A stretch of 63,505 nt of DNA, counting the filler, from Folioceros fuciformis (lineage: Eukaryota): assembly GCA_049999805.1 (NCBI GenBank). It is 8 parts of 8 records of this genome, joined end to end, with 100 filler letters (N's around TTAATTAATTAA, not from the genome) between each part and the next. Parts side by side here need not be neighbours in the genome. Positions count along the whole stretch, not along the records: positions 1 to 6,839 come from JBNGIO010005329.1; positions 6,940 to 12,421 come from JBNGIO010005330.1; positions 12,522 to 21,009 come from JBNGIO010005331.1; positions 21,110 to 28,662 come from JBNGIO010005332.1; positions 28,763 to 35,002 come from JBNGIO010005334.1; positions 35,103 to 41,622 come from JBNGIO010005335.1; 2 more parts are not named here. One strand, 5' to 3'. Positions within the stretch are counted from its first letter, which is position 1. Every line of letters starts with the position of its first letter. This document shows, piece after piece, positions 554 to 41,239 of the stretch. The notes beneath the pieces were generated by a model that saw nothing but the letters and a program-made list of their open reading frames with translations, was not told where the DNA came from and did no database searches. Made by a program: the position numbers and the translations under genes.

Positions 554-982
554 ATGCGTCGTCGTAATTTTGAGAACAAAATCTTGTTTCCTAGATTCGA
601 TTCGAATGCTTCTTGGAAACAAAATGCTCAAAATTTTCGACAAGTGACTCATTTTGATCAGCGATCTACTCGTCACAGACCTGTACAGACGGGGAGACGT
701 CCTTGTGGGATTCGCCACACTGTGCAGCCCTGCTTCAACAATCACAAGCAAGCATTCTGTCCAGGGATCAAACTGCGGCTTAATGACTTCAGCAACCTGC
801 AGTTTCAAGTGCGCAATTTGATCAACAGATGCGTAATTCTGAAGTCCCTTCTAGATGGGTTTCTACTTGGAAGCAATCGAAAGGATGCACAATCAATAGC
901 CGATTTCGAGCCTGCCATAAATCAAGATTTCTACAAGGCATCCACACATCGGAAGGGAGTTCGCAGATCCTTACCTTTCTGA
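554..982 (+). CDS. Copia-A accessory ORF0, 142 aa (Arg-rich N-terminus, helical C-terminal half)
   Basis: ATG ORF between PBS and gag; same position and shared motifs with ORFs in Copia-B, D and E. Confidence 0.65.
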   Translation: MRRRNFENKILFPRFDSNASWKQNAQNFRQVTHFDQRSTRHRPVQTGRRPCGIRHTVQPCFNNHKQAFCPGIKLRLNDFSNLQFQVRNLINRCVILKSLLDGFLLGSNRKDAQSIADFEPAINQDFYKASTHRKGVRRSLPF

Positions 983-1222
983 ATTCGGCTGGATTCGTGG
1001 TCAGCGTTCGGCGTGCGAATCCAGGAAATGCCAGATACGAAAGGGCGCATCCAATCGTTGCACCTCTCCATTTCTAATCCTCCTACTGCGAGAGGTAATC
1101 GTGTCAGTGCAAGGGGCATACAGGCGCGTATCTCAACCGGTACTTACCTGTAACCGTCTTGTCTCGCGGCCTCTGACCTGCACTCGAAGGTCTACCGTTG
1201 GACCTTGCGAATCACTCCGGCG

Positions 1223-4200
1223 ATGAGCACCAGGGGGATACAGTTTGGTTCTGGTGACGAGGATGACTCGGCAGATGCAGACGGCTTGGCCTCTCCCGCA
1301 ATGCGCGCGGGAGGTGGTGGAAGCTCTCCTGCTTCAACTGCGGCTCATCCTGGAGGCGTCGCTACACAAGCTCACGGAACTTTGACGCCTCTCGGGAGAT
1401 TCGGGACAGGGAATACAGGGGGAGCCACCGTTCCNNNNNNNNNNNNNNNNNNNNNNNNNNNNNNNNNNNNNNNNNNNNNNNNNNNNNNNNNNNNNNNNNN
1501 NNNNNNNNNNNNNNNNNNNNNNNNNNNNNNNNNNNNNNNNNNNNNNNNNNNNNNNNNNNNNNNNNNNNNNNNNNNNNNNNNNNNNNNNNNNNNNNNNNNN
1601 NNNNNNNNNNNNNNNNNNNNNNNNNNNNNNNNNNTACAGGGGGAGCCACCGTTCCTGGCAGAGTTCCTGCGGCAGGGGGTGCCTCTTCTGTGCCCGGGGG
1701 TAGCGCCCAGCACATGCCTGGTGCGCCTGCTCTCGAAAGTGGCGGATTGTTTCCGAATCCTCTGGCCGGTTTTTATGCTGCACCGGGAGGCTTCGGGATT
1801 CCAAATTGGTACACAGGTTTGAGTGGAAATTATGGTTCGTTTGGTGGCCCAGCTGGCTATGTACAAGTCCCGCCCGTGCCACCTCCACCTACATTTCCTC
1901 CTGTACCACCTTCAAATCCACCACCACATGTTCCTCCTGTTCCCCCTGTACAACCGACTTCTCCTGGTCCTGGCTCACCAACGGTACCACAGCACGTTTA
2001 TCAGCCTGCTTACACCATTGAGTTCAAAGAACGTGACCGGTTTAATGGAACTAAATACCCTGTCTGGAGCGTACGTATGCGAGCTGCACTTGAAGCTCGA
2101 CACGTTTGGTCAGTTGTGACAGGACAGTACCCTGAACCTCAACCCACTGCCACTCAGGATGATAGAGACAGGTGGGTTAATGCAAACAGCGTTGCTCGTG
2201 CTTTGCTCATTAGTGGGCTGGATGAAGTGCTTGTTCCCGATGTTGCTTATCTCTTAAAGGCTGAGGACATCTGGAGGCAATTGGCACAGACACATGATGT
2301 GAGGAACATTCATACCCTGTGCCATGTACGAACCGAGCTGTTCTCACTGCGCATGAAGGAGGGTGAGAAAGTTGGTACCTTTATTGCCAAGTTCAGGCTC
2401 TTGCGTTCCCAGCTGATTTCATTGGGGACACAACTTGATGACGTCAATGCCGTTGCACAATTACTAAGCAGCTTGCCTCCCACTTATCAGTCCTTTGTAT
2501 CTAGCTACGGTGCCATCCTCAATGCTGCACAACAAGCTGCAGCTCTTGGGTTGGCTCCGCAGATTTCTTTCACTGAAGTGGTTGGCGCCTTACTCCAAGA
2601 AGAGCAGAGTCGGGGCCACCATTCACCTGGAAAGACAAAGGTTGATAAGGTCCTTTACTTGAACAAACAAAAGTTTCAAGGGAAAGGTAAACACCCGTCT
2701 GGTGTTGGTGTTTCCAAACCAGTGACTGGCAAGCGATCTGGCTCCTGTAATTGGTGTGGCATCCAAGGGCACTGGGAACGCGAGTGTAAGAAGAAGAAAA
2801 ACGGAGAACCGAAAAAGGCCGAGAAAACCCAGAAGGTGGTTGAGGCACATTCAGTTTCCAAAGACAGGTCTTCTTACTCCAGTAAGACGCCTGTGGTGAT
2901 GACTGTGTGTCACCATATTTCAGTTTGTGAACCTGACTCATGGTATCTGGATTCGGGAGCAACTTCCCATATCTGCCACAATAAGAACTTGCTTACTAAT
3001 TTCACTCCTACAAGAACAAATGAGAAGGTTCTCTTGGGAGATGAACTTTCACAGACAGGACTTAAAATTCACGGCAAGGGCTCTTGTACCTTTCAACTGA
3101 AGGATGGCACTGCTCTTCAGCTTGATCACGTCTTATATGTTCCTACAATGGCCAAGCAACTTCTGTTTGTCAGCCAGCTTATGAAGCTTCGAAAATTTGA
3201 TCTCAGCTTTTCTGCATCTGGTTGTGCTCTTACGTACACAGGTGCTGCACAAGGTGTTTCCCTAGCTCGTGGGATCTTGGTTGATGACCTTTATAAGCTG
3301 GACATATGCTGTAAACCTGCACACAGCGTTTCTGTGGCTACCAACACACAGTCCTCGTTAGCCCTACTTTGGCATGCTCGTTTAGGACATGCAAATAAAA
3401 ACAGACTTCTAAAAATGTCCACCATGGACTGCTATCGGGAGCCGCTGCCTAAATGTTTTAAGGAACTTCCCCTTTGTGACTCATGTATTCTGGCCAAGCA
3501 AAAGGAGTTACCTTTTCCAACTGCTGTTGCTCACCGGACTTCAAACGTCCTTGATCTTGTGCACACAGACATATCTGGCAAGATACATGTTCCTTCTTTA
3601 GGAGGCTCCAACTACTACCTCACCTTAATTGACGATTATAGCAGATATTGCTGGACATATCCTCTTACTAAGAAATCAGATACCTTCTTGGTGTTTCAAG
3701 AGTGGCTTCCCATGGTTCAGCGTCAGACTGGTCGGCTTCTTCGCTGCTTGCGTTCTGACAATGGGGGCGAGTTTGTGAATCCCGCTTTTGACCAGTTTCT
3801 TGCAGACCGTGGCATCCTGCGCCAGCTTGCCGTTCCCTACACCCAACAACAAAACGGTGTGGCAGAACGTCGTCAGCAAACTCAGCTTGGCATGACTCGC
3901 AGCATGCTTCAGTGGTCTGGACTGCCTAAAGCTTACTGGGCAGAGGCAGTTGTTACAGCAACATATATTTTGAATCATCTTCTTACCGATTCTGTACCAG
4001 GGCGCACTCCTTTTGAAGTCATGTGGCAGTGTCGACCTAGCATACTTCATCTTCGTGTCTTCGGGTCTCCTGCATATGCCTATGTTCCTGCACAAAAACG
4101 CAAGAAGTTAGATGTTCGCGCACGGCTCTTTATTTTTGTTGGTTATGGTGAAGAGACCAAGGCTTATAAGCTCTATGACCCTATCTCTAGGTCATGTATT

Positions 4201-6375
4201 TATGCCCGCAGTGTCACTTTCAAGGAGCTTACTCAGCCTGCTGTTTCCCATCCTGATGATGTTCCTCCTCCCGTCCTTTCTGAGGATGACTTTGACACTT
4301 CTGTTTCCGAATTTCCTCAAGATTTATACATGGTTTCCTCTTCAGAGGGAGTGGCTGCTAGTGGTTCCGGGGGTGATCCTTTACCCTCATCTGCAAATCC
4401 GCAGCATGCTTCGCCGCTTGCATCTCCTTTGCCTGATCAGCAGCAGGAAGATGTTTCAACACCTGCTGATTTAGCTATGTCAGATGATGATTTGCAGGAA
4501 CCTCTCGCAGCACACTCTGAACACTTACCTACTGATGTAGTGGCACCAGCCCCTATGACTGATTTTATGGACGAGGATATTGTTGCTTCAGATGATGACC
4601 AAGATACTCCTGTTCCAAATATTCCCGTCCCTGCCGAGCCTAGGTATCCTAGCAGGACAAGAAACCCTAGATCTCAGTGGCAGGAACGACCATACGAAGC
4701 CATAGATTTTCGGAACATTAGATCTTCCAGATTGGTCACGAAATTACCTGCTGCTTTCTCCTCTTCCTTGGAGCATCCTCCTGAGCCCAGATCATATAAG
4801 GAGGCCATTACAGGTCGCGACAGGGATAAATGGCTTCCTTCCATACAAGATGAGTACAATTCACTTGTCAAAAATGGAACTTGGGAGCTTTGTCCTTTAC
4901 CTGCTGGCCGTAAGGCAGTCAGCTGTAAGTGGATATTTAAGCATAAACTGAATGCTCAAGGACAAATTGCAAGATACAAATCCAGACTCGTTGCTCGAGG
5001 GTTTTCCCAAGTGGCTGGCGTAGACTACACAGATACCTTCAGCCCTGTGGTCAAAACTCAATCCATCAGGATGATTCTAGCTTTAGCAGCTGCTCGTGAC
5101 TGGGATTTAGAACAGATGGATGTATCAACGGCTTTCCTTTATGGAGAACTGGAAGAGGATATCTTTATGGAACAGCCGGAGGGCTTCGTATATCCTCAGC
5201 ATCCAACTTGGGTTTGCAAGCTTAAAAAGACAATATACGGGCTTAAACAAAGCGCAAGGGAATGGTATAAAACTATCGATGCTTACCTTAAATCGATAGG
5301 CTTTACCCAGAGCTCTGCCGATTCCAATGTCTATATCCACATTAGGAAAGGACACATTGTTGTTCTAGCTCTCTATGTTGATGATGCCATTTTAGCATCT
5401 GACAGCCGAGAGCTCATGGATTGGATTAAGCAGATGCTTCACAAACAATACGAGATGCAGGACATCGGAGCTCTTACTTTTGTGCTTGGTGTTCAGCTCC
5501 TACGGGATCGTGCTCAGAAGACCCTTATCTTGCACCAGACAAAGTATATAAATGAAACCCTGCGGCGTTTCCATCTTGATCAAGCAAAACCCGTTAGTAC
5601 CCCAGGAGTAGTCGGTGCAAGGCTTACCTTTGAACATTCTCCACAGACAGATGCCGAATTTCAGGACATGGCAGAAGTTCCATACCGCCATGCCGTCGGC
5701 TGTCTTAATTATATTGCTTGCTGGACTCGTCCTGACATCCAGCATGCCGTCAGCTGTGTTTCGCAGTTCCTCGACAAACCTGGCAAGGAGCATTGGGGTG
5801 CTGTTAAACGCATTCTGCGTTATTTGAAGGGCACATCAACATATGGAGTTTGTTACTGTGGTATTTCTCCAGAGTCTGACTTTGTTCTTCAAGGCTTCGC
5901 TGACGCCGACTGGGCTTCCGATCCAGAGACTCGTCGCAGTCTTTCAGCTTATTGTTTCACTTTATGTGATGCTGTGGTCACTTGGAGTACGAAGAAGCAG
6001 GTCACTGTAGCCCTTTCCTCCACCGAGGCTGAATATAAGGCCTTGACTGAGTCAGCGAAGGAGGCAGAATGGGCCTGCAGTTTCCTTGCAGATCTCCAGT
6101 TTCCCCAGGCTCAACCAACTCGCGTGTATTGTGACAACCAGTCAACAATAGCGTTAGTCGGCAACCCTCGTTTCCATGCCCGCACAAAACATATTGGAAT
6201 CCAGCACCATTTTGTGCGTCACTCAGTTGAGCGCAAGATTGTGAAGATTGAATACATCCCAACAGATCTCAATCTAGCCGACCTGCTTACCAAGGCTCTC
6301 CCTAAGGCTAAGCATATGTTCTTTCTTGAAGAGATGGGGATTACAGATTCCCTTGGGTATCTCCCATTAAGTTGA
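1223..6375 (+). CDS. Copia-A Gag-Pol polyprotein
   Basis: ORF 1690-6375 holds zinc knuckle CNWCGIQGHWEREC, protease WYLDSGA, HARLGH..CDSC, integrase D-D-E (HTDISG/RSDNGGE/NGVAERR), RT YVDD and RNase H ADADW/TEAE/CDN. The 21 nt flanking the N-gap (TACAGGGGGAGCCACCGTTCC) are duplicated; merging them extends the frame to ATG 1223 (inferred start). Confidence 0.93.
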
Positions 6376-6399
6376 CATGCAGTCCGCTGGAGAGCGCAC

Positions 6400-6449
6400 C
6401 AGGTCTTTGCGGATGAAGCCTTCATGCCTGCATCCAATCGCATGGCCTG
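6400..6449 (+). other. 3' UTR stem-loop with GGATGAAGC core (Copia-A)
   Basis: CAGGTC..TGC-GGATG pairs with CATCC..GCA..GGCCTG; similar fold in Copia-B and E. Confidence 0.55.
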
Positions 6450-6452
6450 CTG

Positions 6453-6746
6453 TTATTCTGGCAATGGGATTCGCGCTCCTGCTGCCAATCTCTCCACCAG
6501 ATCAGATCTTCTGCATTGTGCCCTGGTGGCCGCATCTGTCCCATTTTCCGGCTTCACGGTTACCATCAGTGCCAGCTCAATGTCCCATCCTGCTAGGGCG
6601 ATCAGTTTTCTTGCTTCCAGTTTTTTTGTATTTTCGCACTTGTGCCTTGCGCGCCCATTTCCGCAGTCTTTTCTATACGTGCTTGGCGAGCAAGAACAAT
6701 GCAATGGCAAGTGCACAGCTTGAGAGCGCCAGATGCGCTGCTGCAC
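6453..6746 (-). CDS. Putative antisense 3' accessory ORF of Copia-A (97 aa, GTG start)
   Basis: Open frame between pol stop and PPT; stop abuts the hairpin; weak motif match to the Copia-E antisense ORF. Confidence 0.35.
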   Translation of the reverse strand: MQQRIWRSQAVHLPLHCSCSPSTYRKDCGNGRARHKCENTKKLEARKLIALAGWDIELALMVTVKPENGTDAATRAQCRRSDLVERLAAGARIPLPE

Positions 6747-6792
6747 TTATCATCGTTGCTGGTGTTCTGACCGTGTCGTGGTTAAGGGGGTG

Positions 6793-6839
6793 TGTTAAGA
6801 CTGAAAAGTCTATAACCACGCCACTAGGGTTACTCTGAT
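6793..6839 (+). repeat. 3' LTR of Copia-A (truncated by gap)
   Basis: Identical to 1-47, preceded by the PPT. Confidence 0.95.
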
Positions 6840-6939
6840 NNNNNNNNNNNNNNNNNNNNNNNNNNNNNNNNNNNNNNNNNNNNTTAATTAATTAANNNNN
6901 NNNNNNNNNNNNNNNNNNNNNNNNNNNNNNNNNNNNNNN
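6840..6939. other. Artificial contig linker N44-TTAATTAATTAA-N44 (also 12422-12521, 21010-21109, 28663-28762, 35003-35102, 41623-41722, 62222-62321)
   Basis: Identical 100-bp construct seven times; the 12-mer gives stops in all six frames. Confidence 0.97.
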
Positions 6940-7236: not shown

Positions 7237-8186
7237 TCGACTGATTACCTCCTGCCCGCGCATCCCCTTTTGCGCTTCCCTTCCTTGGTTCACCACAAAA
7301 CCGCCTCACTCTCCTCAGAAACAAACGCACACACACATGAACAGCAGCAATCTGTTGGACGCCTTCCACCCGCGTGATCTCACACGTTAGATACACCCCC
7401 TGCGGTCTCAATTCAGCTTCTTCATAGCCTCTCCAGTCTCATCGCGACCAATCACACACCACGTCTCATTGCACCCCACACACATTACCCACCTCGCCTC
7501 CGGGGTTTCCCCGACTTTGTTCTCTCTTACCCCACTCACCAATTCTCTGTATACATTCTGCCCGTCTTAACAGTCGTCGAATCACTTCCACTCCGCTTCA
7601 CTTCCTGCTCCATTTCTTTTGGCTTCCTTTTCGCATTCGCTCTTACCCACTACTCGGCCACTCGCTCCTCCTCCTTCTCACACACGCGCACTCCCGCGCT
7701 CTCCTTTCTCCGGTTCTTCAGTCTTCTTTCTCAGCGATGCCCCCTCCTGGGCTCCTATTAACATTGAGGAATGGTGAGGTACCGGGGCTAAGGGAAGAGG
7801 AGTCCCTTCCACTCCGAACTCGCGGATTCGGCTCCGACACCCGCACCACCCCACATGACCACCTCAAGGATAGCTGGGGAGCTTCTCTCCCACTCGGCGA
7901 GGCTCCTCCTCCCGATTCGTCCCCGGGCTTGATCACGGAGCGCCCACCACCTACACCCGCACCCCAGGTTGCTACGTGCGCTCGCTTGCCTGGACCTCTT
8001 GTCCAGCAACGGCCATCGCGAGGTCCCTGCACGGTCGACTATTCGGCTGGTTCTTGCTGATGTCTTAGGCGTTCAAACCGGCCTCTTGTACACGGTGATG
8101 GTGGCAGGGGAGCTGCACTCTTAAATTCTAAGCGACTTAGGTCCTAATAAAGCAAGGTAAAAAAATCCTATACTAGCCTGCATTTA

Positions 8187-10748
8187 CTATCGCCCTTTCC
8201 CACGCCGCTGGCGGCTTCCTCCTGGCCTTCGCGTGTCACCCCTTGCCGCCCCTCCTCTCGCTCTTCTGCCCCTCCGTTGGCCCGGCAGATCCTCCCAGAG
8301 GATCTCCACATCACTGCTGCTGCTGCTGGACCCGGTTGGCGGCGCAGGTGGGTCCCGCCGCTGTGGTCCACCACTCCTCCTCCTTCTCTGGTTGCTGAGG
8401 ACAGCCACAGGCCCCCGTTCTACCCAACGCTGGGCCTCCTCTTCCGTCAGTTCCTCCAGAACTGCCTCCGCATAGCAGTGGGGCAGTCCTGTAACCCACG
8501 AGCTGTAGTGGTAGAGTCCCAGGCTCGTCCTCAACTGTAGGCCATAGCCCCGCGCCCCTCCTGTGCCCATACGTACATACAGAAACAGCTTCAGAACCCT
8601 GGCCCCTTCTACATACAGGCCTGGCACATAGGAGGCCTCCTCCTCATACTGCAGCACAATCCGACCTTCTGTCATAACAGAGGTGCTTACCCCGTCCTCC
8701 CTTGGGCTACCTCGGGTTGCCTGCTCCCCCTCTTGCTGGGGTACTTGAAGGTTCTCTGCCTGCCCAACTGTTGCCTCCTCCGGCTCTATCCTCCTGGTAC
8801 GGGTCACCCTCCTGGAGCGCCTAGGGGCAGGCGCCCCTACTACTTCCTCCTTCGTTTTCCAGGGTTGGTTCTTCAGCTATCCTGGGCCTTGCTGGGCCGC
8901 CGGTAGCCACGTCGGCTACCCGACTACTGGTAGTCCCGTTGACTACCGGAGTACGGGTAGTCCCCTCGACTACCGTTCCCCTGGTTCGGCTACCGGTAGC
9001 CCCTTCTGCTACCGGGGTCGCCAACTGACTCGGACGCCCAGCCTTGCTCTTCCCCTTCACTCTCTCTCTCTGGCCTCATCCTACTCCCGCTTGTATCTGT
9101 CAGCCAACTTCTGAGCCTACTCCACAGCGACTATCTCCATCTCCTGTGCCCTGGCCATTTCCTGTTGCATCTCCAACTTAGTCTCGTGAGCCTCCCTCAC
9201 CTGAGCTAGCACGGTCCCTTGTTGCTCTTTCAGCGCTTGCACTTCAGCCCTCGCCTCGCGCGCCTCTTCCTCAGCTTGAGCCTTCTCCCTGTCAAAGACC
9301 CGCTGCTTCTCCTCCAGTAGTTGCCGTGCCCTCTCCGACTTCGCCTGTTGCCTCCTTGCTTCAGCCTCTCGCTCACGAGCCTTCTCCTCCTTTCCCCAAG
9401 CCTCAGCCTCTCGCTCCGCTTGTACACTTAACCATGTCAGGGCCCTAGCAGCCTGATCCAAGAGGTCTGCTTGGGCCTGCACCATCGCAGCAGTCAGCCC
9501 GGGTAGGTCCATGTCCTGCACCCCTCCGGCGCCCATTCCTCTCGCCGTGATTTGTCTGCCCAGGAATTCTCGCAACTTGTCCAGGTCCCCCACCTGCAAC
9601 CTGTCTCTCTAAGGCTTGCACCTGAAAATGTCCTTCCACCTTGAGGAACCCTCCTGTGCTGAAACGTGCCCTAACTTATCCTCCTGTCTGGAGGAAACTG
9701 TGTCGGCTGCCATCGCCTGATCCGGTGGCTCCTCGGGTCTTGTCTCACCCTGACCTTGCTCTTCCAACCTTCGGTCCTTGATTCCCTGGACAGCTGGTTC
9801 TCGTTCTGCCTCCTGCTGACCCGTCTGCTCCAGGGCTGTCCCCCCTTCCTCCTGATTAGCCCCCATGCTCACACTTTGTCTTCTGGTCCTTTTCCTCATG
9901 GCAGGAGTCTTCTTTTGTGGCGCCATCCTCTTCCTGAGCTTGACTGGGGTTTCCTCCTGCGAGGTATTCCCACTGTCAGCTTCCCAACTGTTGGAGGCAG
10001 CCCTTGCTGGCTCAGTGGGCTTCCACTTCACATCGCGAACTGGCTTCCACAGGTGCAGCAAGGCCAGCCTTTCTAGCTCAGTGACAAGGTTAGCGTAACT
10101 GTACACATGGATTAGAAACGAGGAAATCATAGAAGGTTCAAGGGTGGGTTGGATCAGGTTCTGCCTCTCCTCATCCATCCGGGTGTATAAAATCCTCCCC
10201 CAGTCGATCCTGGTGCCCTTCACTACTTCATGCACAAACAGGAGCATCTGATCGGACAGATAATCCTGTTTGCGTACCTGGAAGAAGCTCAGGAACCACC
10301 TGGCCAATCCCAACAGCTGGGGACTTGCCATGTCGCGCACCAGCCACCCGTTCGCTTCCTTTCTCGTGCCTGCCTTGAGGAGCGTTTCCGCGGCTCCCGT
10401 TTCGCCACGCCTCTTCAGGGACTCTAGCACCAGTCCCCCTTCCTCCTGTTGGTCGCACCCGTAGACCCTCCTAATCAACTCCAAGTTCCATTCCTGGGGT
10501 CTGCTTGTGATCCCCTCCTCGCGTACAGGCTCTATCAGCCTCAGGGCGCACTCCCTGACTAGCTGGGGTGCTGCATGGTTCCACTTCTGGGTCATAAAAG
10601 TCAGACCCAGCTGTGCCACCAACTTTCCTGCCCTGACCTTCCAGTGCTCCATATTTGGCCACAGGAGTAGGTCGATTCGGGGGATAGGAGGCCCCCCCTC
10701 CTGTCTAGAGGCTGCTGCTCCAGGGATCAGTTCAGACCGCGACCTCAT
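8187..10748 (-). pseudogene. Degenerate retroelement accessory gene (plant-transposon-protein-like domain, then coiled coil and low-complexity tail)
   Basis: 379-aa ORF 9609-10748 continues in frame past a TAG into coiled-coil ORF 9117-9599, then fragments 8821-9060 and 8187-8807. Motif LLFVHEVVKGTRIDWGRILYTRM resembles extra ORFs of Athila/Tat-type elements (recognition only). Confidence 0.5.
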
Positions 10749-28662: not shown

Positions 28663-28774
28663 NNNNNNNNNNNNNNNNNNNNNNNNNNNNNNNNNNNNNN
28701 NNNNNNTTAATTAATTAANNNNNNNNNNNNNNNNNNNNNNNNNNNNNNNNNNNNNNNNNNNNGAACCAAAGATA

Positions 28775-29020: not shown

Positions 29021-30075
29021 TCTTAGATATGACCGTGGGAACTTAGGGTCCATTGTACCCATAGGCCACCCACCAAGTTCATTATTCCTATACTGTGAAC
29101 TGAAAGGAAATTGTTGTCTTTGGCAGTCAACATTTTGCAGTGCTCTGAACTCCTGAACATGTTCACGTGTGCACTCGTTGGTCATCTTTATTGTTCTCGG
29201 CTTTAGAACTTGTGTGACCCTACAGGCTAAAGCCTTTCAAAGCTTCTAATTCATCCAAACTTGCGACCTTATAGACGATTGCAGTCCTTGGCCACCGACG
29301 TTTACGGTTCATATGACCTCGCATCATTGTACTCCGCTAATGTGCACAATGGCATTTGCCCCCTTTTCATGGTCCTCTCTCGGGCACTTATAGTACTTGG
29401 TAGTCCTTGGCCATTGACGATTCTGATTGATCGAACATCGCGTCCATCCAATCCTTTGTAGACATGGGCCTTCGCCCATTGTCGGGTTCCCAAGTCTCAC
29501 CCAACGCTATCACATGCACGTGTACACTTTGAATCACATGGAATACTGTCCTGTTAAGGCCTACGGTGTGACTTCCACCCAAAGTTGTAGAAAACCAGGC
29601 AAGCGTTGGAGCAAGCTGGCAAGGCGTTGGTGTCATACTTTGTTCCATTGACATAATTCGGGAACAAAAAGGGTTTGTCTCCAACGTCATAATTAGTGTG
29701 TAGGCCACAAGTAATGTTCACTCTAGGTGGTTGTAGTACGATTCATAGCCTGATGCCCTGCAGATGGGCCATCATGGGCTGAGGCAAGGAAGACCCGGCA
29801 GATATCGGTACCTGTGGGATGAAGAGTCGATGGCGAAACCATAGCTGGCCATCCCCCTCAATTCTATCAGCGTTTACAACTCCAACGGCCTGAAGGGCAC
29901 ATCTGTCATCCGCATCCTGGACAAGAGCCTCGGGTTATCCATCCCGCCAGTCGAATGGAATACGTAACTTCGAGAGTGCGATCGTTTGCACCACACTTAA
30001 CGCATCAGCAATATGGTTACGATGGCCTTTGACGTAACAGATCTTGTATTGGTATTGCTAGAGCAACTCAACCCA

Positions 30076-30450
30076 TCAGGCTCCTTGCATGAGATAGTCG
30101 TCATCTAATGGAGATAAATACGAGGGCAGTGGTATGTCTCCAATTCGAAAGGGGCACCCCTCTAACAGTGAACGCCATGGCTTGACTGTCAAGATTTGAG
30201 CGAAAGACTCCTTCTCACTTGTTCTGTAGATGAACTTGGCTCCCATCAACCTCCGCGAGAAGATAGCAATAGTCTGCCGGCCTGGGTCTCCAGTTCTGTT
30301 GCAAGACCGCACCAACGACCAACTTGGAGACATGGGTTGTTATAATAACAGGCACCGTTTGGTTTGGGTGTGCTAACATAGGGGCTTTCCTCAAAGCAGT
30401 CTAGCTATCACGAACTTGGTTGTCTTTAATAGCAACTCAAGTCTAAACCT
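30076..30450 (-). pseudogene. Ty3/gypsy pol relic (RT connection/RNase H)
   Basis: TALRKAPMLAHPN...THVSKLVVGAVLQQ, then (frameshift) IAIFSRRLMGAKFIYRTSEKE...KPWRSLLEGCPF; the relic probably extends to ~29500-30960. Confidence 0.7.
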
Positions 30451-31252
30451 AGCGGGTTGGTTGCCCAAGTGCACGCCTCTCCTCCCCATACATTTGTTTG
30501 CATACATAGCCTCTACGCGTCCCCTGTGGGTTGTACACGACTTTGAGGTCGAAAACCAAACCGAACATTTGGCAAAAGCATGGTCAAACGGAGTGTGTGC
30601 AGAGTTACGACCATGTTTCAGGTGTTTAGGCTGGAACACAGGCAGCCTTCGGGTTCAAATCCCAAACACCACCTGTAACCATGGGTGGGTGCGCGCCTGT
30701 GCTTGGGCAAGGTTTGCTTGCAAAGTGCACGCATGTCCGGTTTGGTTGTGGCTCTCAAACTTCCGTACGTGCGAAACTGGACGCGTAATCCATGTGTTCC
30801 ACTTAAAGTGAGGGGACGCGTTCCCTTTGTGATGCCTTACTCATGCATTCAGGGACTCCACTTCAGAGTCAGTGTTGTCACATTCCATGTTTGTTCAAGC
30901 TGTGTCCCAAAGTCTGTACAAGTCATGGCAATGACGGTGCCTCTTCTCCAAGCCTAGTTCGTACATCATGCATCCCCTCTGTATAAGAATACGTAGTATT
31001 TAAGTAGTCAAAGACATATAATAATTAAATAATTATAGACAATAGCCGAAACGCCATAAGGCGTGAGGCTTGTAAAGGTCACGACTAACAATCGTGACCT
31101 AAAGACTAACCGCCGTACCCCCGCGATGGGACACGGCCAACCGCCACCGTCTCCTTCCTTCAAAACGATCGCGTGCGCAACATAAATTAATCTTTCGTGA
31201 TTCTATCTTTTCTAAGCAATCAATCCTACCATCTCTTCATGGTATCAGAGCC

Positions 31253-31429
31253 ATGGACGCTGCCATGTCTGCTAATCACTGTCCAATTTGTCTGAGTGGA
31301 GATTGTATCAAAAGTCTGGAGTTCGACCATTTCCGAATTCTTGTATCTGCACTCAAATTGGCATTGATTAGGTTTGGTAGCATGGCAGATAGGTTCCTAG
31401 CAGAAATTGTAGATCACTATTTCTCCTAG
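31253..31429 (+). CDS. 58-aa upstream ORF directly after the Copia-D PBS
   Basis: MDAAMSANHCPICLSGDCIKSLEF...HYFS*; ATG abuts the PBS and the stop lies 8 nt before the ORF0 ATG. Confidence 0.4.
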   Translation: MDAAMSANHCPICLSGDCIKSLEFDHFRILVSALKLALIRFGSMADRFLAEIVDHYFS

Positions 31430-31437
31430 AAACTACC

Positions 31438-32070
31438 ATGCCGAGAGCAAGAGGGCAGCGGAAGTCAAACCTGTTGGTAGATCGCTTCGCTGTTCAAAAT
31501 AGTCGGTTTGCACACGAACAGAATCAAAACTTGAACCATTTTCTATCGCACATTGTACTACCTGCTGTTTCCCCAACAAATTTACGGAACCAGCAGGCAT
31601 CTTGTGCATTTTCTAGGCATCAGGCGAATAGGCACCTTAGTGGTGCTCATTCCGACTATCTCACAAATTTGAAAACAAACGCTAGAAGGAAAACTGAGTA
31701 CTTGCACACAAATTCACAACAACGTTCTAGGCAACTAGAAAATAGACCACTGTGTGATAACTGCACAAGTAGTCTAGCCGTGCCAAGTCCTGCAGACCAC
31801 CTTCTAGCAGAAGTCCATAATCTTATAACATGTCAAGCCGAAACAAATCGACACCAATTTGCTGACATTGATGAGAGAATTAAGGACAATAGCAGATCTC
31901 TTGTTCTGCTGTCTCAACAGATAGCTGTACTATCCATCTCCTTTCGAAAACCTGCACCACAATCAGAGAAAGAGATTGCATTAATCAATCAGGTGCATGC
32001 AATGAAGGATATGTTCAGTAACAAGGCAGAACTTAACAATGGATCTGTAGCTGTCCCACCAAATGTCTAG
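31438..32070 (+). CDS. Copia-D accessory ORF0, 210 aa
   Basis: ACCATG context, MPRARGQRK start, heptad-like C-terminal half; positional homolog of the other ORF0s. Confidence 0.65.
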   Translation: MPRARGQRKSNLLVDRFAVQNSRFAHEQNQNLNHFLSHIVLPAVSPTNLRNQQASCAFSRHQANRHLSGAHSDYLTNLKTNARRKTEYLHTNSQQRSRQLENRPLCDNCTSSLAVPSPADHLLAEVHNLITCQAETNRHQFADIDERIKDNSRSLVLLSQQIAVLSISFRKPAPQSEKEIALINQVHAMKDMFSNKAELNNGSVAVPPNV

Positions 32071-32105
32071 CCTGCTGTGTGGATGTCACATAGAGGCAAA
32101 GAAGA

Positions 32106-35002
32106 GTGAACCCATCAGGAAGAGGCATACCTCATAGTAGAGGCCAAGCATCTGACAGTGCATCAGATTCGTTCGATCCTCTATCTCTTGGTACCTCTTC
32201 ATCTCGGTCAAACACATCTTCCTCTTCAAGGCCAGTGCCTAGTGCTCAGTCTAGCACAAGTGCTGCATCACAATTACAAGCATTTAGACAAGGACTTGCT
32301 TTGCAATTAGCAACACGCTTAATTCAAACAATGGCGGCAGCTGCACCTGCTGGGACAATAAATAACACCACGGTGCATAATCTAAAAATAGATTTCAAAG
32401 AGAAGGATAGGTTTTCGGGTTCCCAGTTTGACATATGGGCCCTGCGAGTGAAAACCATCCTCAGAGAGCACGATTTGTGGGATGTCGTCACTGGAACCTC
32501 TCCCAAACCAGCCCAAGGGTTAGCCCAGGCTGATATTGATGCATGGAACAAGAAGGACCTGCGAGAATTGGGAGTAATTCAGGCGGCATTAGATGGCACT
32601 ATGATAGATTACACACGCGATGTTGCATCAACAAAAGAGGCTTGGGATGCACTTACTCAAGCTTTCCAGGTCGTCAATGGTAACTGCAACCAGGTCCTTC
32701 TACACAAACAAGATGAAGGAGACAGATTCTATTGAGGCTCACGTCAGCAAGTTCCGACTTCTGCGCTCAAAACTAGCAACCAGCGGCTCAACACTAACTG
32801 AAATTCAGGCTTCAACAACTCTGTTGCTCACTCTCCCGGAGAGTTATAGGACCTTTGTGAGAAATTACAGCTCAAATCTCCGCAATATACAGCTTGCTAC
32901 CCCTCAGGGTCAGAACCCGGCTGTGCATTTAAGTGACCTGGTTGGTGCTCTTCTCGAGGAAGAGGCAACACGGACTGCTATCAGAGGTGGCACCTCCCAC
33001 AGAGGGGAGACCTCAAACAGGGCGCTCTTCACGCAAAGAGGCCCTCGTAGGCCACCACCTCGGCAGCCATGGTCAAACAGCAATGCATCTCAGGGTAAGA
33101 AACGTCCAGGGGCACAAACAACAAGGAAGAAGGGTTCTTGTAACTGGTGTTTGATACCAGGTCACTACGAGGCAGACTGTCGGAAGAAAAAGGCCAATGA
33201 GCCTAGACGGATTGCACCTCCAGCAGAAAGCAATCTTGTTCAAAAGAAAAATACTATACTTGCAGTATTCATGGTTGCAACAACCCAAGTGAATGATGTA
33301 TGGTACCTTGATTCATGTGCGTCAGCGCACATATGTCATAATAGGAGGTCATTTTTACATTATACTCCAATGCCACCTGGTTAGCAGGTGCTGTTAGGTG
33401 ACGACAGAGGTCTCAATATAGAGGGAGTAGGCACAGTGCCAGTCCTCCTCACTAATAGAAGTACCATCAATCTAATGGATGTGTTACACGTCTCTGCGAT
33501 GGTCAAGAACTTGGTGTCAGTCAGCAAGTTTCAACAACAACATGGCTTAGCTATTTCGTTCATAGGTCTGGACTGTTATCTTACTGACCCCCAATACAAG
33601 GATAGAATCTTGGGTACGGGCAAACCTGTCAATGACCTGTACGCACTTGATTTCACTTCCAAGTTTGGGCTGCCTGCACCTACAGTTCAGGTCAGTCAAG
33701 CACAAGTGAAGAAGCAGCAGTCTATACTATGGCATTACAGACTGGCACATGCTAACTTTGATAAAATGCAAGCCATGATTACCGATAATACTCTCTACAG
33801 AGAGAAGTTTCTGCTTAAGTTTGTAGACAAACAATTCTGTGAGGCGTGTGCTTTTGGCAAGCACCAACTTTTACCATACCGAGATACCAATCCAACACGT
33901 GCTACAAAGTTGCTTGAGTTGGTACATTCAGACTTGTGTGGACCTATGTCCATTGCTTCCCTTGGCAGAGCTAAGTACATACTCTCTTTCGTGGATGATT
34001 GGAGCCGCTATACCATCATCTACTTTATCAAACACAAGAGCCAGACGTTAGGCTGTTTCCAAGAGTATGTAACTTTTGCACAACGACAAACTGGAGAACT
34101 TGTTAAAACTCTGCGCAGCGATGGAGGAGGAGAGTACTGCTCTGAGGAGTTTACTGACTACTGTCGCTCCCTTGGCATCGCTCGCCAGATTACCACACCT
34201 TACACTTCAGCGCAGAATCCCATAGCTGAGCTTAACAACAAGCATCTCCAGCAAGCGGCGAAGTCCATGCTGAAGGTCTCCCGCTTGTCTAGGGGGTAAT
34301 GGGCAGAAGCTGTTGCGACAGCCAACTATGTGAAGATGCGCCTGCCAACCAAAGCTTTTCCAGGTGCCACCCCATATGAGCGGTGGACATCACACAAGCC
34401 ACGAATTAATCACCTACGTATTTTCGGTGCTTTAGCCTATGCACATTTGGCTGAGGACCAGTGGGTGACGCTGGATTATAAAGCACGCAAATATGTTTTC
34501 GTGGGCTACACTGAAGGTATAAAAGGCTACAAGCTCTATGATCTTGATACTAGAACAACAACGCATTCTAGAAGTGTTCTTTTCAATGAACATGCACTGC
34601 TAGAACCTCCTCAATTAGCTCCTTTGAGCACACAGGCTTCAAGCAGTCATTCAGAGGACATAGAGATAGAAGACCAAACCATTGAGATGTCTATTTCGAG
34701 TCAGACTCCAGCTCAGGTTCCTGCACCCCATGTGCAGCAGTCTAGACCCTCTGTTACATCACATCAGCCTGCCATTAGTCATCAAACTCCACTAGATGAT
34801 CAAGTCGAGGAAACTAGCTACTTCCCTGATGATGATGAGTCCAGTCGAGTCTCACATGACATGGGTATGGCCAACAATGATGATGATGCTTCTAATGAAC
34901 AAGAAGTCGATGACGGGTTAGCATAGTCAGCAGAATCTGAAATCCCTCAACATACGGAGGTCTTTGTACCTGAGGAGCCTGTCAGACGAAGTACCAGGAG
35001 AC
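32106..35002 (+). pseudogene. Copia-D gag-PR-IN pseudogene
   Basis: Fragments 32106-32735, 32620-33384, 33388-34299 and 34330-34926 with copia motifs. Confidence 0.9.
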
Positions 35003-35102
35003 NNNNNNNNNNNNNNNNNNNNNNNNNNNNNNNNNNNNNNNNNNNNTTAATTAATTAANNNNNNNNNNNNNNNNNNNNNNNNNNNNNNNNNNNNNNNNNN
35101 NN

Positions 35103-35143
35103 CAACCAAAACAAACTACTACCCCAAACTTTGGAGGTTCACA
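35103..35143 (-). repeat. TGTGAACC-family LTR terminus (copy 3), abutting the Copia-E 3' region
   Basis: Identical to 7196-7236. Confidence 0.8.
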
Positions 35144-35240
35144 CTTGGCGCTTAGCAGAAGCAAGACTTCAATAGATCAGTAGGGGCTTTTCTTCCAATC
35201 ACGGTAGTGCGCTACCATCGTCACCACTCTCTCCTACAGG

Positions 35241-35627
35241 ATGGCCTGCAGCAGCTTTGACTCCTTGGAGATGGGCAGCAGCAGCATCAAGCATCTGAGA
35301 AATCCGCCACCTGAACAACTTCCTACTCCGTCATCTCCCTCTGTAACTGGGAAGTCATGGTGGCCAAACAAGGTTGATATGGAGCTGCTGTGGCATTGTA
35401 TCAAGGCGCTCGAGATGTGCAACAAATTGGAAGACCTCATCTCATTTGCAAAGAAGAAAGCATGGGAACCGAAGGCGCTACTGGCTAAGACAATTGCCGA
35501 GGATGAACTGTCGCAACCCTTAACACCTGCAGAGTACAGTACAGTGATGCGGGAGCTTGAAGAGCTTGGCTACATCCTTCGCTCAGCATCAAGTGAGAGG
35601 CAAACCTATCACCTTACAACACTCTAG
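35241..35627 (+). CDS. Antisense 3' accessory ORF of Copia-E, 128 aa
   Basis: ATG ORF with amphipathic-helix composition (..LTPAEYSTVMRELEELGYIL..); stop 3 nt from the 3' hairpin. Confidence 0.5.
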   Translation: MACSSFDSLEMGSSSIKHLRNPPPEQLPTPSSPSVTGKSWWPNKVDMELLWHCIKALEMCNKLEDLISFAKKKAWEPKALLAKTIAEDELSQPLTPAEYSTVMRELEELGYILRSASSERQTYHLTTL

Positions 35628-35821
35628 CATGTGATGCACTCACAACTGGATTCTGAACTTAGGCTTCATCCACTGAGGGCACCACAACGTTGACTTGCTA
35701 TGAAAAGGAGACAGTGAGAGCAAGCTCTGTATTTCGTGTGGATAGCTGGACCAAGTATGGATTATTGAAAACTGGACAAGCTAACTTGCAAACTGTCTCC
35801 ATGAGGACTAAACTAGGTAGG

Positions 35822-38800
35822 TCACGTATCGGTAGTGGGCATGGAAAATGCCCTCAGCCCAAGGGCTTCTAAGTGTTTGTAATGCTTCTCCTTGGACAGA
35901 CCCTTAGTAAAGATGTCAGCAGTGTTTTCATCTGTTGCCACATAGCTAACCTTAACAATTTCACCCTCGACAACATCCCTGATATAATGGTGTTGTATTA
36001 CGATATGTTTCGTTCTTGCGTGAAATTTAGGATTAGCTACAAGCTTAGACAGGAAGGTACGCTCCCACTCAGCCTCTTTTGAGGCTTCTGTTAAGCTTTT
36101 ATACTCTATCTCTGTCGATGATAAAACTTCTGACGTTTGCTTTTTACACCTCCAATTAATAGCAACTAAAGACAATAGGAAACAATATGTGGAAAGGCTC
36201 CGACGAGATTCTGTACCGGATGCCCAATCTGCATTCGTGAATCCTCTGAGTGTAAGCTTTCCTTCATTACTACTTCTATAAGCAAGTCCATATGATTGTG
36301 CCCCTTTTAGATAGCGAAAGACACGTTTGACTACTGTCCAGTGTACCCTGCCTGGATTTTCCAGGAATTGAAACAAGGTGCTGACTGAATACTGTATGTC
36401 TGGGCGTGTTCAGTTAGCTATAAATATCAAACTTCCAATCGCATGCCTGTACAGTACTTATGCCATCTCCCTTATTTCATTTGCTGCTTGAGGACATTGT
36501 AAACTAGTGAGCTTTGTCCCAAGGGCATAGGGAGTAGTAGAAGGTCTAGCATGTTCGAGTTTAAACCGTTTCAAAAGTTCATGAACATACTGATATTGAT
36601 GAATGAGGATTAGTTTTTCTTCCCTTACTTGTAGCAACTGGATTCCTAAGCAGAATTTTAGCTCGCCAATATCTTTTATCTCGAACTTATTACTTAGCAT
36701 CTCTTTTACCTCTGCTAATAGTGGCTGATTGTTTGTGGCAAGTATGAGATCGTCCACATACATAGCGAGGATCACATATTCGGTTCCTTTTGTCAGTTTA
36801 TAGACATTACTGTCTGTAGAACTCTGGACAAAGGAACTGCTTATAAGGTACTCATGAACGGTGAGACTCGACCACTCTATTTTAGACCATAAATGGTCTT
36901 TAGTAGCTTCAGTACTTTCTTAGGGTGTTTAGGATCCTCATAACCTTCAGGCTGTATCATATAAAGATCCTCATCCAGTGCTCCATATAAAAATGTCGTG
37001 CAGACATCCATCTGTTGTAGGTCTAGGTCGAATTTAGATGCAAGGGCAAAAATCATTCTTATGGATTGTGGTCTCACAACAGGTGAGAATGTCTCTTGAT
37101 AATCTAGTCCTTCTACCCGAGTGAATCCCCTTGCGACCAATCTAGCCTTATACCTTGCTATCTCTCCCTTCGCATTAAGCTTTAGTTTGAATACCCACTT
37201 ACAGGAGATAGGCTTTCGGTCAAGAGGTAAGTTTACCAATCTCCAAGTTTTGTTCTTTACCAGAGAATTATACTCTTTGTCAACAGCAAATTTCCATTTG
37301 TCCCTTTCAAGTCCTGAGAATGCTTCTATGAGGGATTTTGGTTCCAGATGTATAGTGCTAGATGTAGAATGGCAAATTTCTGTATATGCTGTCCTGAAGT
37401 CAATTGACTCATATCTTGGCTCTTTTCATTGTTATGGTGGAGGGCGATTCCTTGTTGACCTTCGCAAAGGAGGATCTCAATCCTCATTAGGAACAACAGG
37501 AGCATGGTCTTCATCATCTCCTTCAGGCACATATAACTNNNNNNNNNNNNNNNNNNNNNNNNNNNNNNNNNNNNNNNNNNNNNNNNNNNNNNNNNNNNNN
37601 NNNNNNNNNNNNNNNNNNNNNNNNNNNNNNNNNNNNNNCATATAACTCGTCATTCAATGCTCCCTCAGCTTTGTCAACAGCTGGGTTTATGGGTGGATCA
37701 CCTTGATTTGGATCAGGAATGATAGCTTGTGGTTAATCAGGTACTAATACAAAAGGAGAAAGTATTGGGTCAACTGGCTGACCAAGCTGAGGAGATGGTT
37801 GGGTCACTAGCCGACCAACCTGTACATCTTCCTCATCCTGAGATTCATCCATTGGAAAATGAGAAGTATTTTCCCCTGTCTCACGTAAAGTTACTCCCTC
37901 AACTTCGGAAAACCCTATTGGTTTATCAACCTCAAAAAAGGTAACAGTACGTGCTAACACTACCCGCCTATTCTCATGATCGTATAGTTTGTATACTTTG
38001 GACTATTCACTATAGCCAACGAAGACAAGTGCTTGGGCTCTCGGATCTAGTTTCTTTCTCTTCTCCTCTGGGATGAGAGCAAAAGGACGAGAACCAAATA
38101 CTTGTAAGTGCAGCAAATTAGGTTTTTGTTTCTAGAATGCTTCATATGGGGTCTTGGAAGGAACGGAGCTAGTGAAAAGTCGATTCAGGATGTATGTAGC
38201 AGAAACAATAGCTTCAGCCCAATACTCCTGAGGTAAGTTTGCCCATAACAACATACTCCTAGTCATAGGCAATAGAGTTTGATTTTTCTACTCTGCCACT
38301 CCGTTCTGTTGTGGTGTGTAAGGGACTGTGAGTTGACACTGAATCCCCCTCTCTTGGAAGAGTGTATCAAAAGCATAGTTCAGGAATTCTGTTCCATTGT
38401 CAATCCGGATGTATTTAACGAAATGTCCTGTCTGTTTTTCAGCCATCAGCAGCCATTCTCAAAAAAGCTCGAAGGTGTCACTCTTCAGTTGCATTGGATA
38501 TGTCCAAGTGTACGAGAGTAATAATTTGTGATGCATAGGTAATATATGGAACCTCCCAGAGATGGGATTTGTATTTTTCCAAATAAATCTACATGCACTA
38601 GTTCTAACACATTCGTGGCTCTATAGGATGCTGCAATTGGAAAAGGATGAGCCTTCTGTTTTGCAACAATGCAGGCTTCACAAGGCGGCAGGTCCTTAAA
38701 GACTTGAGGTAAGGTTTCTAAATGACACTCTTGTAGCGACATGTCTACCAGTTTTCGTTTATTAACATGACCAAGCTTGGCATGCCACAGGACAACAAGG

Positions 38801-40284
38801 CGTTGGGAATGTTTGGAGACTAAGCTTGCCTTATGACGAAGGGTACAGATATCAAGTCTATAGAGATCATGATCAAGTGTACCTTTGAACACCAGCATGG
38901 ATGGATTTGACCTTTTGTAGAAAAGACAAATGTCCTCACTGGCTTTCATGTTATATATGCGCAATTGCATCTGCTTGCTAAGAGAAAACAAATTCTTGGC
39001 CATGGAGGGTACATAGAGAACGCCATCCAAGGTAAGAATTGATCCATCGTGAAGTGTGAACTTGCACGTCCCACAGCTTAGAATAGGGAGACTGGAATGG
39101 TTCCTTTCATCTCCCAGCAGAACTCTTTCAGCTGTGTGATCAGCTTTTAGCATATAGAACTGATCCTTGTTTTTGCAGATGTGTTACGTGGCACTAGAGT
39201 CTAAATACCAGCCATCCTCATCACTTATGGATCTAGCGAGGCAGACTGTAAGTATCTTCATCGCTGGTTTGGTGTCACCTATGTTCTTCTCCTTAATCGC
39301 AATAGTTGCGGTATTCTTAGGAGTTCTTTGAGGTTCTCCTGCCTTCTTCTTCTTGCATTCTCGAGCCCAATGACTGGCTATGCCACACCAGTTGCAATTT
39401 CCAGGTCGCTTAGATGGGCCAGAGAAATCAAAAGTTTGCACAGGTTTACCTCATGCCTTGCCTTTTCCTTTGAATGTCCTATGATTTGTTGCTAATGCCT
39501 TCTCTGTTTTGCTCTTAGGAGCTCCCATCGAAAACATTTTGCTCTGCTCTTCCTGGTACAAGGCACCGATTACCTCTTCAAGGATGATGGTGCTTACACT
39601 TCCAGCAGCAACAGCAGCATGTGCTGTTCACATAGGGCCATTCTGGTTAGTAATAAATGAATGGTACGAAGGTGGTAGTCTAGTGAGGAGCTCAGCAATA
39701 GCATCCACTTCACCGATCTTGGTTCCAGTGAGTGATGCAATTTGAGCTTTTAGGTGTCGAAACTTGCTTGCGAAGTTCGATACCTTTTCTCCCTCTCTCA
39801 TCTTTAGATTATAGAATTCATGTTTCACTGCTCACAAGGTTAACACGTTTGTGACCTTGTTGTAGGTCTTCTCCAACTGTGACCATATCTCATAAGCGTT
39901 TTCCAGGAATTCAACTTTTGGTACAAGGTCAGCATCCATGCCTCCAATTAGTAGAGCAATGGCTATGCCATTGAGCTCATCCCACTCAGCAATCTGATAT
40001 GTTGTTGGGGCTAGATTTGCATTGGGATCCAGTTTATTTAAAGTCCCATCCACAATTTTCCATACGCGTCGAGCTATCAAGGTAGCCTTTACTCGGATTC
40101 GCCAAACTGGGTACCTTGTGCCATTGAAGCGATCTTTCTCCTTCAGTTCTGACATGTATGTTGCCTTAGCAGGAGAGGTGGCCATTACTACAGGCTGGTA
40201 AATGTTGACAGCAAGCTGTATGAAACTTAGGCTTTGGGACTGACTAATGAAGGCGTTTATGGATGCAGCAGAACCTGCGAACAT
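35822..40284 (-). pseudogene. Copia-E gag-pol pseudogene
   Basis: Co-linear fragments with copia motifs and many stops. Confidence 0.9.
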
Positions 40285-40753
40285 AAGATCTTAACAAGGT
40301 AACTAAAGTTATGGCCTTAGTGACACAGGTTAGTAGGTTAAGCCCACTAGATCTCTTTTCCTTTTTTATTATTTTTGTTCTAACACTAGCATGACAAGCT
40401 AGGATAAGAGGGGAAGGATGAGTTCGAGGGGGAGGGGATACTTAAGTATTCTTGCCTCTTCGTACTCGTCCTCCATTTCATATCCCGTCTATTAATACTT
40501 AGTTTAGACTAATAACGTTTCGTAAGGTATGTATGAAAACATGACTTAATTAATTAATTTTAAAAAAGAGCATGTTCTTTCCGCTGAACCCTAACAGTCA
40601 CTTCTTGGTGTCTCTTCAAGTGGACCAATAGCATTATGAGGGATGCAAAAAATGCTAAGGGACACCTCTATGATTGTGACTCTTCAGATCTGTGGCTTTT
40701 GCAACGCCGGGTGTGGGCGCCTTCGGCTCTCCAACAGCGAAAGCAAGGAAAGG

Positions 40754-41239
40754 TCATCGAATCTGTGAAGATATGTTGCAATTGGCGGCAAATCCTCTTA
40801 GATTCATATTCTGTAGAAGAACAACAATGCTCTTCATATCTTCCTTTATTTGTTCTGATTCCACAATTGCTGTATGCTCAAGAAAATTTCTTATATCTTC
40901 AACGTTGCTCAGAATCTCTTCTTGACTCTGTAGCAACAAAGATTGAATTTTCTCCACCTGCCTTAGCACAGCCAATTGTCTGTAAACCACGTTGGTTAGA
41001 ATCACTTCTGATGATCGTTCTGTTTGTGGTGCAGTTGGATATGCCGCTTGACGAATTGGGTGTGGGCAAGGTGGAGGTGTATTCCTTCTCCTTTCGCAGC
41101 AATGTGAGGTCTGTCTCCCTCTTTGCCAATCAATTTTTGAATATCTAGCATGTGCAGAATTTCTTCTCACATCTTGTCTCTGTCCAAACAGGTGGTTAGG
41201 TTGGGGGCCACCTCTCCAGTTTGTAGACTTTCGAGGCAT
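40754..41239 (-). CDS. Copia-E accessory ORF0, 161 aa (extends to 40655 if the TGA is a mutated CGA)
   Basis: MPRKSTNWR start; coiled coil aligns with Copia-B ORF0. Confidence 0.68.
   Translation of the reverse strand: MPRKSTNWRGGPQPNHLFGQRQDVRRNSAHARYSKIDWQRGRQTSHCCERRRNTPPPCPHPIRQAAYPTAPQTERSSEVILTNVVYRQLAVLRQVEKIQSLLLQSQEEILSNVEDIRNFLEHTAIVESEQIKEDMKSIVVLLQNMNLRGFAANCNISSQIR

Follow-up and report, generated by a model that had tools for sequence, protein, structure and literature searches.

An open reading frame ahead of gag in four Ty1/copia elements of Folioceros fuciformis: a possible accessory gene

Ty1/copia elements are usually treated as carrying gag-pol only, and four elements of this group in a 63.5-kb stretch of DNA from Folioceros fuciformis (the window) raise the question of whether a sense open reading frame (ORF) ahead of gag is a further gene. 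Eight unplaced contigs were joined artificially to make the window, by N44-TTAATTAATTAA-N44 linkers that read as a stop in all six frames. The four elements (named A, B, D, and E), which lie one each on four separate repeat-rich contigs, are therefore not neighbors, and adjacency across the linkers is meaningless. An earlier interpretation made from the nucleotides alone, here called the sequence-only reading, had described in each element an ORF between the primer binding site (PBS) and gag, named ORF0, and had taken the four for one conserved accessory gene of a possibly undescribed copia lineage. The ORFs are present ahead of gag in all four elements at the coordinates proposed, and the position between PBS and gag holds for A, D, and E; the PBS of B lies beyond the start of its contig. 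We tentatively favor, with somewhat less than even confidence, the reading that ORF0 is a real, very fast-evolving 5′ accessory ORF that would be translated from the genomic RNA, leaky scanning then giving access to gag.

The four elements are Ty1/copia, with integrase ahead of reverse transcriptase (RT), an order given by Pfam for A and by colinearity with A in tblastn for B, D, and E. In A, a 1553-residue ORF contains DUF4219 and Retrotran_gag_2 (110-301), Pol_BBD (410-491), gag_pre-integrs (525-596), rve (615-709), SH3_retrovirus (773-841), and RVT_2 (1054-1297), with domain E-values of 1e-7 to 1e-69. Only A has an intact gag-pol; those of B, D, and E are incomplete or decayed. The gag of A is interrupted in the window by a run of 200 N (1435-1634), and public contigs join position 1413 directly to 1635, with 21 letters fitting both sides. 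There seems to be no sequence within this gap, its flanks overlapping. Across this join, the reading frame of 1714-6375 continues from the ATG at 1223, and gag-pol therefore reads as one uninterrupted frame of about 1643 codons. Across a block of 170-186 columns in gag and protease, identity is 54% for A-B, 45% for B-E, 43% for A-E, and 35-39% for D against the others. Judged from these identities of 35-54%, the elements are several families, not one, and the single undescribed lineage of the sequence-only reading is not supported. The PBS motif TGGTATCAGAGC, which we take to be the usual copia motif of tRNA-Met type, matches the window four times with at most one mismatch (0.32 expected), and three of these matches lie upstream of A, D, and E.

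The ORF0 frames are open to an extent that base composition does not readily give. For each leader, the length of the longest sense ORF was set against 1000 dinucleotide shuffles; it was reached in 11 shuffles for A and in none for D or E. In B, ORF0 is frameshifted, as had been proposed, and consists of an ATG frame together with a stop-free frame that holds the helix discussed below. The 112-residue ORF of the ATG frame is ordinary (105/1000 shuffles), and the stop-free frame of 204 codons is reached in 3/1000. Stop codons per frame, with the ORF0 frame given first, number 0/7/6 in A, 0/18/5 in B, 0/11/19 in D, and 0/10/5 in E, where 5.1, 8.4, 10.4, and 8.9 per frame are expected. Stop avoidance is confined to the ORF0 frame in all four elements. 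As a separate observation, two sense frames are open together over about 113 codons in the ATG-frame interval of B, which exceeds what one frameshift needs. No tandem repeats were found within the four ORF0s.

These counts bear on the alternative that survives best, in which ORF0 is no gene and the leader is under constraints at the RNA level, such as a packaging or dimerization structure and AUG avoidance, the open frames and basic starts being by-products picked by eye. We consider this somewhat unlikely; stop avoidance in one frame in all four elements argues against it, as do ORF lengths that beat the shuffles in all four. A further look at the frame is offered by the one related copy of A used here, which comes from public contigs and is about 6.5% diverged. 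It lacks 7 nucleotides (nt) at 1073 and has 6 extra nt at 1204, both changes lying in the spacer between ORF0 and gag. No indel in ORF0 is among those listed, beyond which stand 33 further rows; since the comparison contains 13 gap letters, the sum of the two spacer indels, none lies inside ORF0. In the run data on A, no ORF0 variant is among the 40 of 1981 listed.

The N-termini encoded by the four ORF0s are basic, as the sequence-only reading had noted, with three or four Arg or Lys among residues 2-9. Such starts are rare elsewhere: of the 200 ORFs of at least 50 residues in the window, 11 have at least three Arg or Lys in residues 2-9, and these include the four ORF0s, leaving 7 of 196 others. 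At least four are found in four ORFs of the window, three of which are the ORF0s of A, B, and D. Furthermore, the net charge of residues 1-50 is +9 in A, +10 in B, +5 in D, and +8 in E, compared with a mean of +2.2 (standard deviation 3.5) for 59 ORFs of at least 100 residues. The Arg codons of the four starts vary between elements (CGT, CGG, AGA, AGG, and CGA), which argues for a cause at the protein rather than the DNA level, with no shared DNA motif. Both the rarity of these starts and their differing codons count against basic residues as by-products of an RNA leader.

The stretch from the ORF0 ATG to the gag ATG is poor in further sense ATGs, with 27 seen against 53.9 expected over the four elements (7/10.2 in A, 1/12.4 in B, 8/15.1 in D, and 11/16.2 in E). 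As few ATGs occur in 0 of 1000 shuffles for B, 7 for D, and 50 for E; the depletion is significant in D and borderline in E. It is most pronounced in B, where a single ATG occurs in the 895 nt past the ORF0 ATG and ATG is the most depleted of the 64 trinucleotides. The ratio of seen to expected is 1.07-1.23 in gag-pol, and the opposite strand of the ORF0-to-gag stretch is not depleted, with 8-22 CAT. For comparison, among 327 N-free 900-nt windows the ratio is at most 0.70 in 8.9%, at most 0.55 in 4.3%, and at most 0.2 in 0.9%. All four ORF0 start codons have an adenine at -3 and a C or T at +4. That the depletion begins at an ATG of adequate context, with no depletion between PBS and ORF0 in A (1.00) and E (1.05), is a further argument against a leader that merely avoids AUG.

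Upstream of ORF0 the leaders are structured in two of the elements. The segment 232-560 of A folds at -98.1 kcal/mol (z -6.3), and none of 100 shuffles is as stable; for 31240-31445 of D the z is -3.66, with 1 of 200 shuffles as stable. The decayed element E has no strong structure between PBS and ORF0 (z -0.5). ATGs that open short ORFs precede ORF0 in A (8), D (3), and E (6).

Taken together, these features suggest how ORF0 could be expressed. ORF0, placed between a tRNA-iMet PBS and gag, would be translated from the full-length element RNA, and the structured leader, rich in upstream ATGs, would have to be circumvented or unwound, whether through a shunt or through a downstream transcription start. 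The moderate AUG context would let part of the scanning 40S subunits initiate at ORF0, and the remaining subunits may traverse the AUG-poor stretch to the gag AUG by leaky scanning, a mechanism known from the pregenomic RNA of tungro- and badnaviruses. The predicted product is a small basic protein (isoelectric point, pI, 9.7-11.7), rich in Arg/Lys and disordered in its N-terminal part and helical in its C-terminal half. Such an architecture makes the product most likely a nucleic-acid binder, and its target is probably the element's own RNA. The fuller model, in which several copia families of this genome would each use a bicistronic genomic RNA, a shunted leader with upstream ORFs (uORFs), an Arg-rich, helical, RNA-binding ORF0, and leaky scanning to gag-pol, appears unlikely to us.

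Similarity among the four products is limited. Pairwise Smith-Waterman alignments (10 comparisons, 300 shuffles each) gave one marginal result, between frame 2 of B and E (z 3.3, 2/300 shuffles), and no other pair was significant. The proposed helix block stands for B, D, and E but not for A. The ungapped 40-column block of B, D, and E has a score of 53 (19.5 ± 10.1 in shuffles), which is reached in 3/500 trials with the C-terminal halves shuffled; the frequency is 1/500 at 50 columns, where the register of D shifts, and 18/500 at 30 columns. A heptad-like helix fares unevenly as well: AlphaFold2, run on the single sequence of the E ORF0, predicts residues 1-74 as disordered and a helix at 75-122 (pLDDT, its confidence score, about 89), and a crude heptad score is weak (71, 36, 16, and 11 of 300 for A, B, D, and E). 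A basic C-terminal His motif, also proposed, proved to be at chance level (reached in 135 of 300 shuffles with blocks of 8 residues, in 82 with 10, and in 244 with 12), and in D and E it needs read-through of a stop. Comparison of leader against leader by blastn and tblastx gave nothing with E below 0.06; tblastx patches in other frames between A and B and between A and E (IYSSQTCT/ILSSQICT and LLQQSQASILS/LLLQSQEEILS) have E-values of at least 1 and were set aside as chance. In conclusion, no significant similarity unites all four members, the claim of one protein family across them is not supported, and ORF0 as a conserved, selected gene is unproven. In the favored reading, selection would act on the protein.

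Outside homologues were sought widely. Word-seeded searches with the ORF0s of A, D, and B (frame 2) returned none among proteins of near length, the range searched, which leaves out longer or fused forms. A full phmmer search with the E ORF0 against 1.84 billion representatives gave 0 matches, the best ESM Atlas scores were 0.81 and 0.85, under the lead level of 0.9, and no related loci were found in viral contigs. Two candidates were rejected: a Pfam match of the E ORF0 to HEPN_Swt1 is sub-threshold (16.6 bits vs a cutoff of 27.5), and in metagenome contigs the one match, a 1076-nt contig covering 23 residues, is useless.

Several observations weigh against a real ORF0, and part of them favor a leader without a gene. 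Three of the four elements are decayed, and the ORF0 of B is itself frameshifted. Element A, which alone is intact and is nearest to B (54% in gag and protease), shares ORF0 likeness with it only over the first residues; its ORF0 has no significant similarity to the others, and its score against the B/D/E block is reached in 87 of 200 shuffles. Its ATG depletion is not significant either (143/1000 shuffles). Depletion of ATG would also be expected of a long untranslated leader ahead of gag and suits a plain long 5′ untranslated region; the strong leader structure and the chance-level C-terminal motif likewise speak for a leader without a gene. Pfam and three large protein searches, confined to near lengths for A, D, and B, gave no homologue. 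Recognition by a protein language model is poor, at 1393 and 1085; a value of 2300 is attained by 91% of known families. In addition, an AlphaFold2 model of the D ORF0, all helix at a pLDDT of 58, is too weak to use. Given the upstream ATGs and the stable structure, ORF0 is unlikely to be reached by simple cap-dependent scanning, and the favored reading has to suppose a shunt or an internal start site. In E, an antisense ORF as long as ORF0 has the better codon score (0.269 vs 0.106 bits per codon); this 170-residue ORF is either a shadow frame or a real coding strand. The score, trained on gag-pol, gives 0.04-0.23 bits per codon for the ORF0s and 0.22-0.48 for control windows, and it was discarded as non-discriminating since the antisense ORF reaches 0.27. 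Finally, the statistics on basic N-termini and on ATG were framed after the data had been seen.

Between a protein-coding gene and no gene stands the alternative that ORF0 is a translated, long regulatory uORF whose peptide is unimportant and which throttles gag-pol or decides whether the RNA is translated or packaged. Retention of position and openness without retention of sequence would suit such a role, as would the moderate AUG context and the ATG-poor stretch downstream. We regard it as distinctly improbable: 112-210 open codons are unnecessary for a uORF effect, and the common basic N-terminus, with the weak helix block of B, D, and E, points to constraint on the product. Very unlikely is the idea that ORF0 is no separate gene but extends Gag at its N-terminus, in a decayed, read-through, or spliced form, an idea to which the shared frame of ORF0 and gag in A and B, the gag frame of D that begins about 20 nt past the ORF0 stop and stays open for about 80 codons before its first ATG, and Gag N-terminal regions of A and B that already exceed 230 residues ahead of DUF4219 lend some color, but against which stand two in-frame stops between ORF0 and gag in the intact A (about 1643 codons), four in B, stops in all frames of the 470-nt spacer of E, and the 7-nt spacer deletion in the relative of A, which does not suit coding sequence. 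An accessory ORF expressed from the genomic RNA is the reading that we carry forward, with the tentativeness stated at the outset.

The coordinates of the elements and their parts are collected in Table 1.

Table 1. Features of the four copia elements and the linkers, in positions of the whole window.
Feature	Position	Strand	Remarks
Element A 5′ long terminal repeat (LTR), 3′ part	1-231	+	contig begins within LTR; 1-47 = 6793-6839 at 100%; PBS next at 232
Element A PBS	232-243	+	TGGTATCAGAGT, 1 mismatch
Element A structured leader ahead of ORF0	244-553	+	8 upstream ATGs opening short ORFs
Element A ORF0	554-982	+	142 residues, pI 11.4, start MRRRN
Element A ORF0-gag spacer	983-1222	+	same frame as both; 2 stops
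Element A gag-pol	1223-6375	+	single frame of about 1643 codons once the N run is bridged
Element B contig	12522-21009	+	ORF0 ATG lies 57 nt from the contig start
Element B ORF0, ATG frame	12579-12917	+	112 residues, pI 11.7, start MSRRNRYR
Element B second frame	12574-13188	+	204 codons stop-free; holds helix block EIVTNIDVVRIQLE...KSIV
Element B spacer	13189-13476	+	ahead of gag
Element B gag-pol	13477-18577	+	interrupted by stops, an N run, and frameshifts; tblastn matches it piecewise in several frames
Element D contig	28763-35002	+	ends within integrase
Element D PBS	31240-31251	+	exact match
Element D structured leader	31252-31437	+	3 upstream ATGs, each opening an ORF that stops 8 nt short of the ORF0 ATG
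Element D ORF0	31438-32070	+	210 residues, pI 9.7, start MPRARGQRK
Element D gag to integrase	32331-34887	+	contig end cuts integrase; gag frame open for about 80 codons before first ATG
Element E contig	35103-41622	-	decayed
Element E PBS	41443-41432	-	1 mismatch
Element E ORF0	40754-41239	-	161 residues, pI 9.9, start MPRKSTNWR
Element E gag-pol	35855-40284	-	decayed: stops, N run
ORF antisense to element E ORF0	40636-41148	+	170 residues; no Pfam family
Linkers	6840-6939, 12422-12521, 21010-21109, 28663-28762, 35003-35102, 41623-41722, 62222-62321		N44-TTAATTAATTAA-N44

Both ends of the element A contig (1-6839) lie inside the LTR. A 153-residue ORF on the plus strand (6377-6838) begins 2 nt after the pol stop of A and overlaps the LTR piece at 6793-6839; Pfam assigns it to no family, its codon score is negative, and it is probably incidental. 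In one DNA run from the same sample (X3), C>T (502) and G>A (537) differences are in large excess over 1-6839, a pattern such as would come from a bisulfite or enzymatic methyl-conversion library. From a putative RNA run (X4), only 5 pieces fall on element A, all of them in pol. A further PBS (41917-41906, minus strand) has a leader of only 183 nt to the contig start and is uninformative.

Elsewhere in the window, a 359-residue ORF on the minus strand (46806-47885) carries a partial Glyco_hydro_19 domain (class I chitinase; profile positions 1-68 of 232, E 1.9e-21) and probably represents a single exon of a chitinase gene of the plant type. Degenerate CCTAAAC/CCTAACC arrays, similar in sequence to the plant telomere repeat, occur at 24562-24662 and 27597-27619 within a C-rich contig. 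The region 8101-9300 (plus strand) has a GC content of about 59% and includes 900-nt windows with 0 ATG against 3.9-5.0 expected; near it lie minus-strand ORFs of 379 and 162 residues with no Pfam family. Tandem repeats with periods of 63, 66, 58, and 41 nt and 2.2-4 copies were found at 44037-44287, 42213-42357, 28859-29015, and 62503-62622, respectively.

If the favored reading is true, ORF0 would add an accessory function to copia and form a convergent parallel to badnavirus and tungrovirus expression; under the fuller model, the accessory gene together with its translation strategy would be undescribed for Ty1/copia. If it fails, the four leaders would serve as a useful warning that genes can be mimicked by composition biases and frame-specific open frames in the leaders of retroelements. 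A copia 5′ ORF with a leaky-scanning signature is undescribed in the literature searched, outside which lie the supplementary tables of PMC6317226 that may list copia 5′ eORF (extra ORF) groups.

Extra ORFs at the 5′ end of plant LTR retrotransposons are a known kind of feature. The closest precedent comes from the grass elements Retrosat2, RIRE3, RIRE8, and FRetro3, in which an ORF0 upstream of gag-pol is described, with no outside homologue or known function (PMC3485330). Its position is kept at about 10% similarity, compared with more than 60% for gag-pol; the elements exceed 12 kb, have LTRs of more than 3 kb, and stand beside Ty3/gypsy references in the RT tree presented there (PMC3485330). 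As far as that description goes, the likeness lies in a fast-diverging sense ORF that keeps its position ahead of gag-pol; the difference is that the elements here are Ty1/copia and their ORF0s have 112-210 codons, the comparison being one of descriptions and not of sequences.

The survey of Neumann et al. (2019) reports eORFs in 582 Ty1/copia elements, in 45 mutually dissimilar groups, and interprets them as fast-evolving or independently acquired (PMC6317226). Its category eORF-5′F, set up for plant LTR retrotransposons including Ogre/Tat and copia, takes in forward ORFs of 250 codons or more that precede the polyprotein, lie outside tandem repeats, and are never fused to it (PMC6317226). 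The ORF0s share with it the forward orientation and the place in the 5′ part of the element, free of tandem repeats, and are shorter than its lower limit (142, 112 [204 stop-free], 210, and 161 codons). For copia, the text singles out only the 3′ eORF of SIRE (PMC6317226), and extra ORFs of plant LTR elements are described as mostly 3′ of pol (PMC7264820). The env-like ORF of SIRE-clade copia resembles ORF0, by these accounts, as an extra sense ORF of highly heterogeneous sequence (PMC6317226, PMC7264820), and differs in lying between pol and the 3′ LTR, whereas ORF0 lies 5′ of gag. Provided that it is real, ORF0 would thus be a known kind of 5′ extra ORF, here in copia and shorter.

A parallel in layout comes from rice tungro bacilliform virus (RTBV) and the badnaviruses. 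No homology connects them with the elements here. The Caulimoviridae are relatives of Ty3/gypsy and not of copia, and AUG depletion in the elements is complete only in B (1 ATG in 895 nt) and partial in D, E, and A. In these viruses, as described in PMC5902531, ORFs I and II, which precede the polyprotein ORF III, are kept AUG-free over about 900 nt for leaky scanning, and a moderate AUG context lets part of the scanning subunits pass. The likeness is one of layout: in both, a structured leader with uORFs is followed by one or more small, AUG-poor ORFs with a weak or moderate start, and these by a polyprotein of capsid, protease, and RT (PMC5902531).

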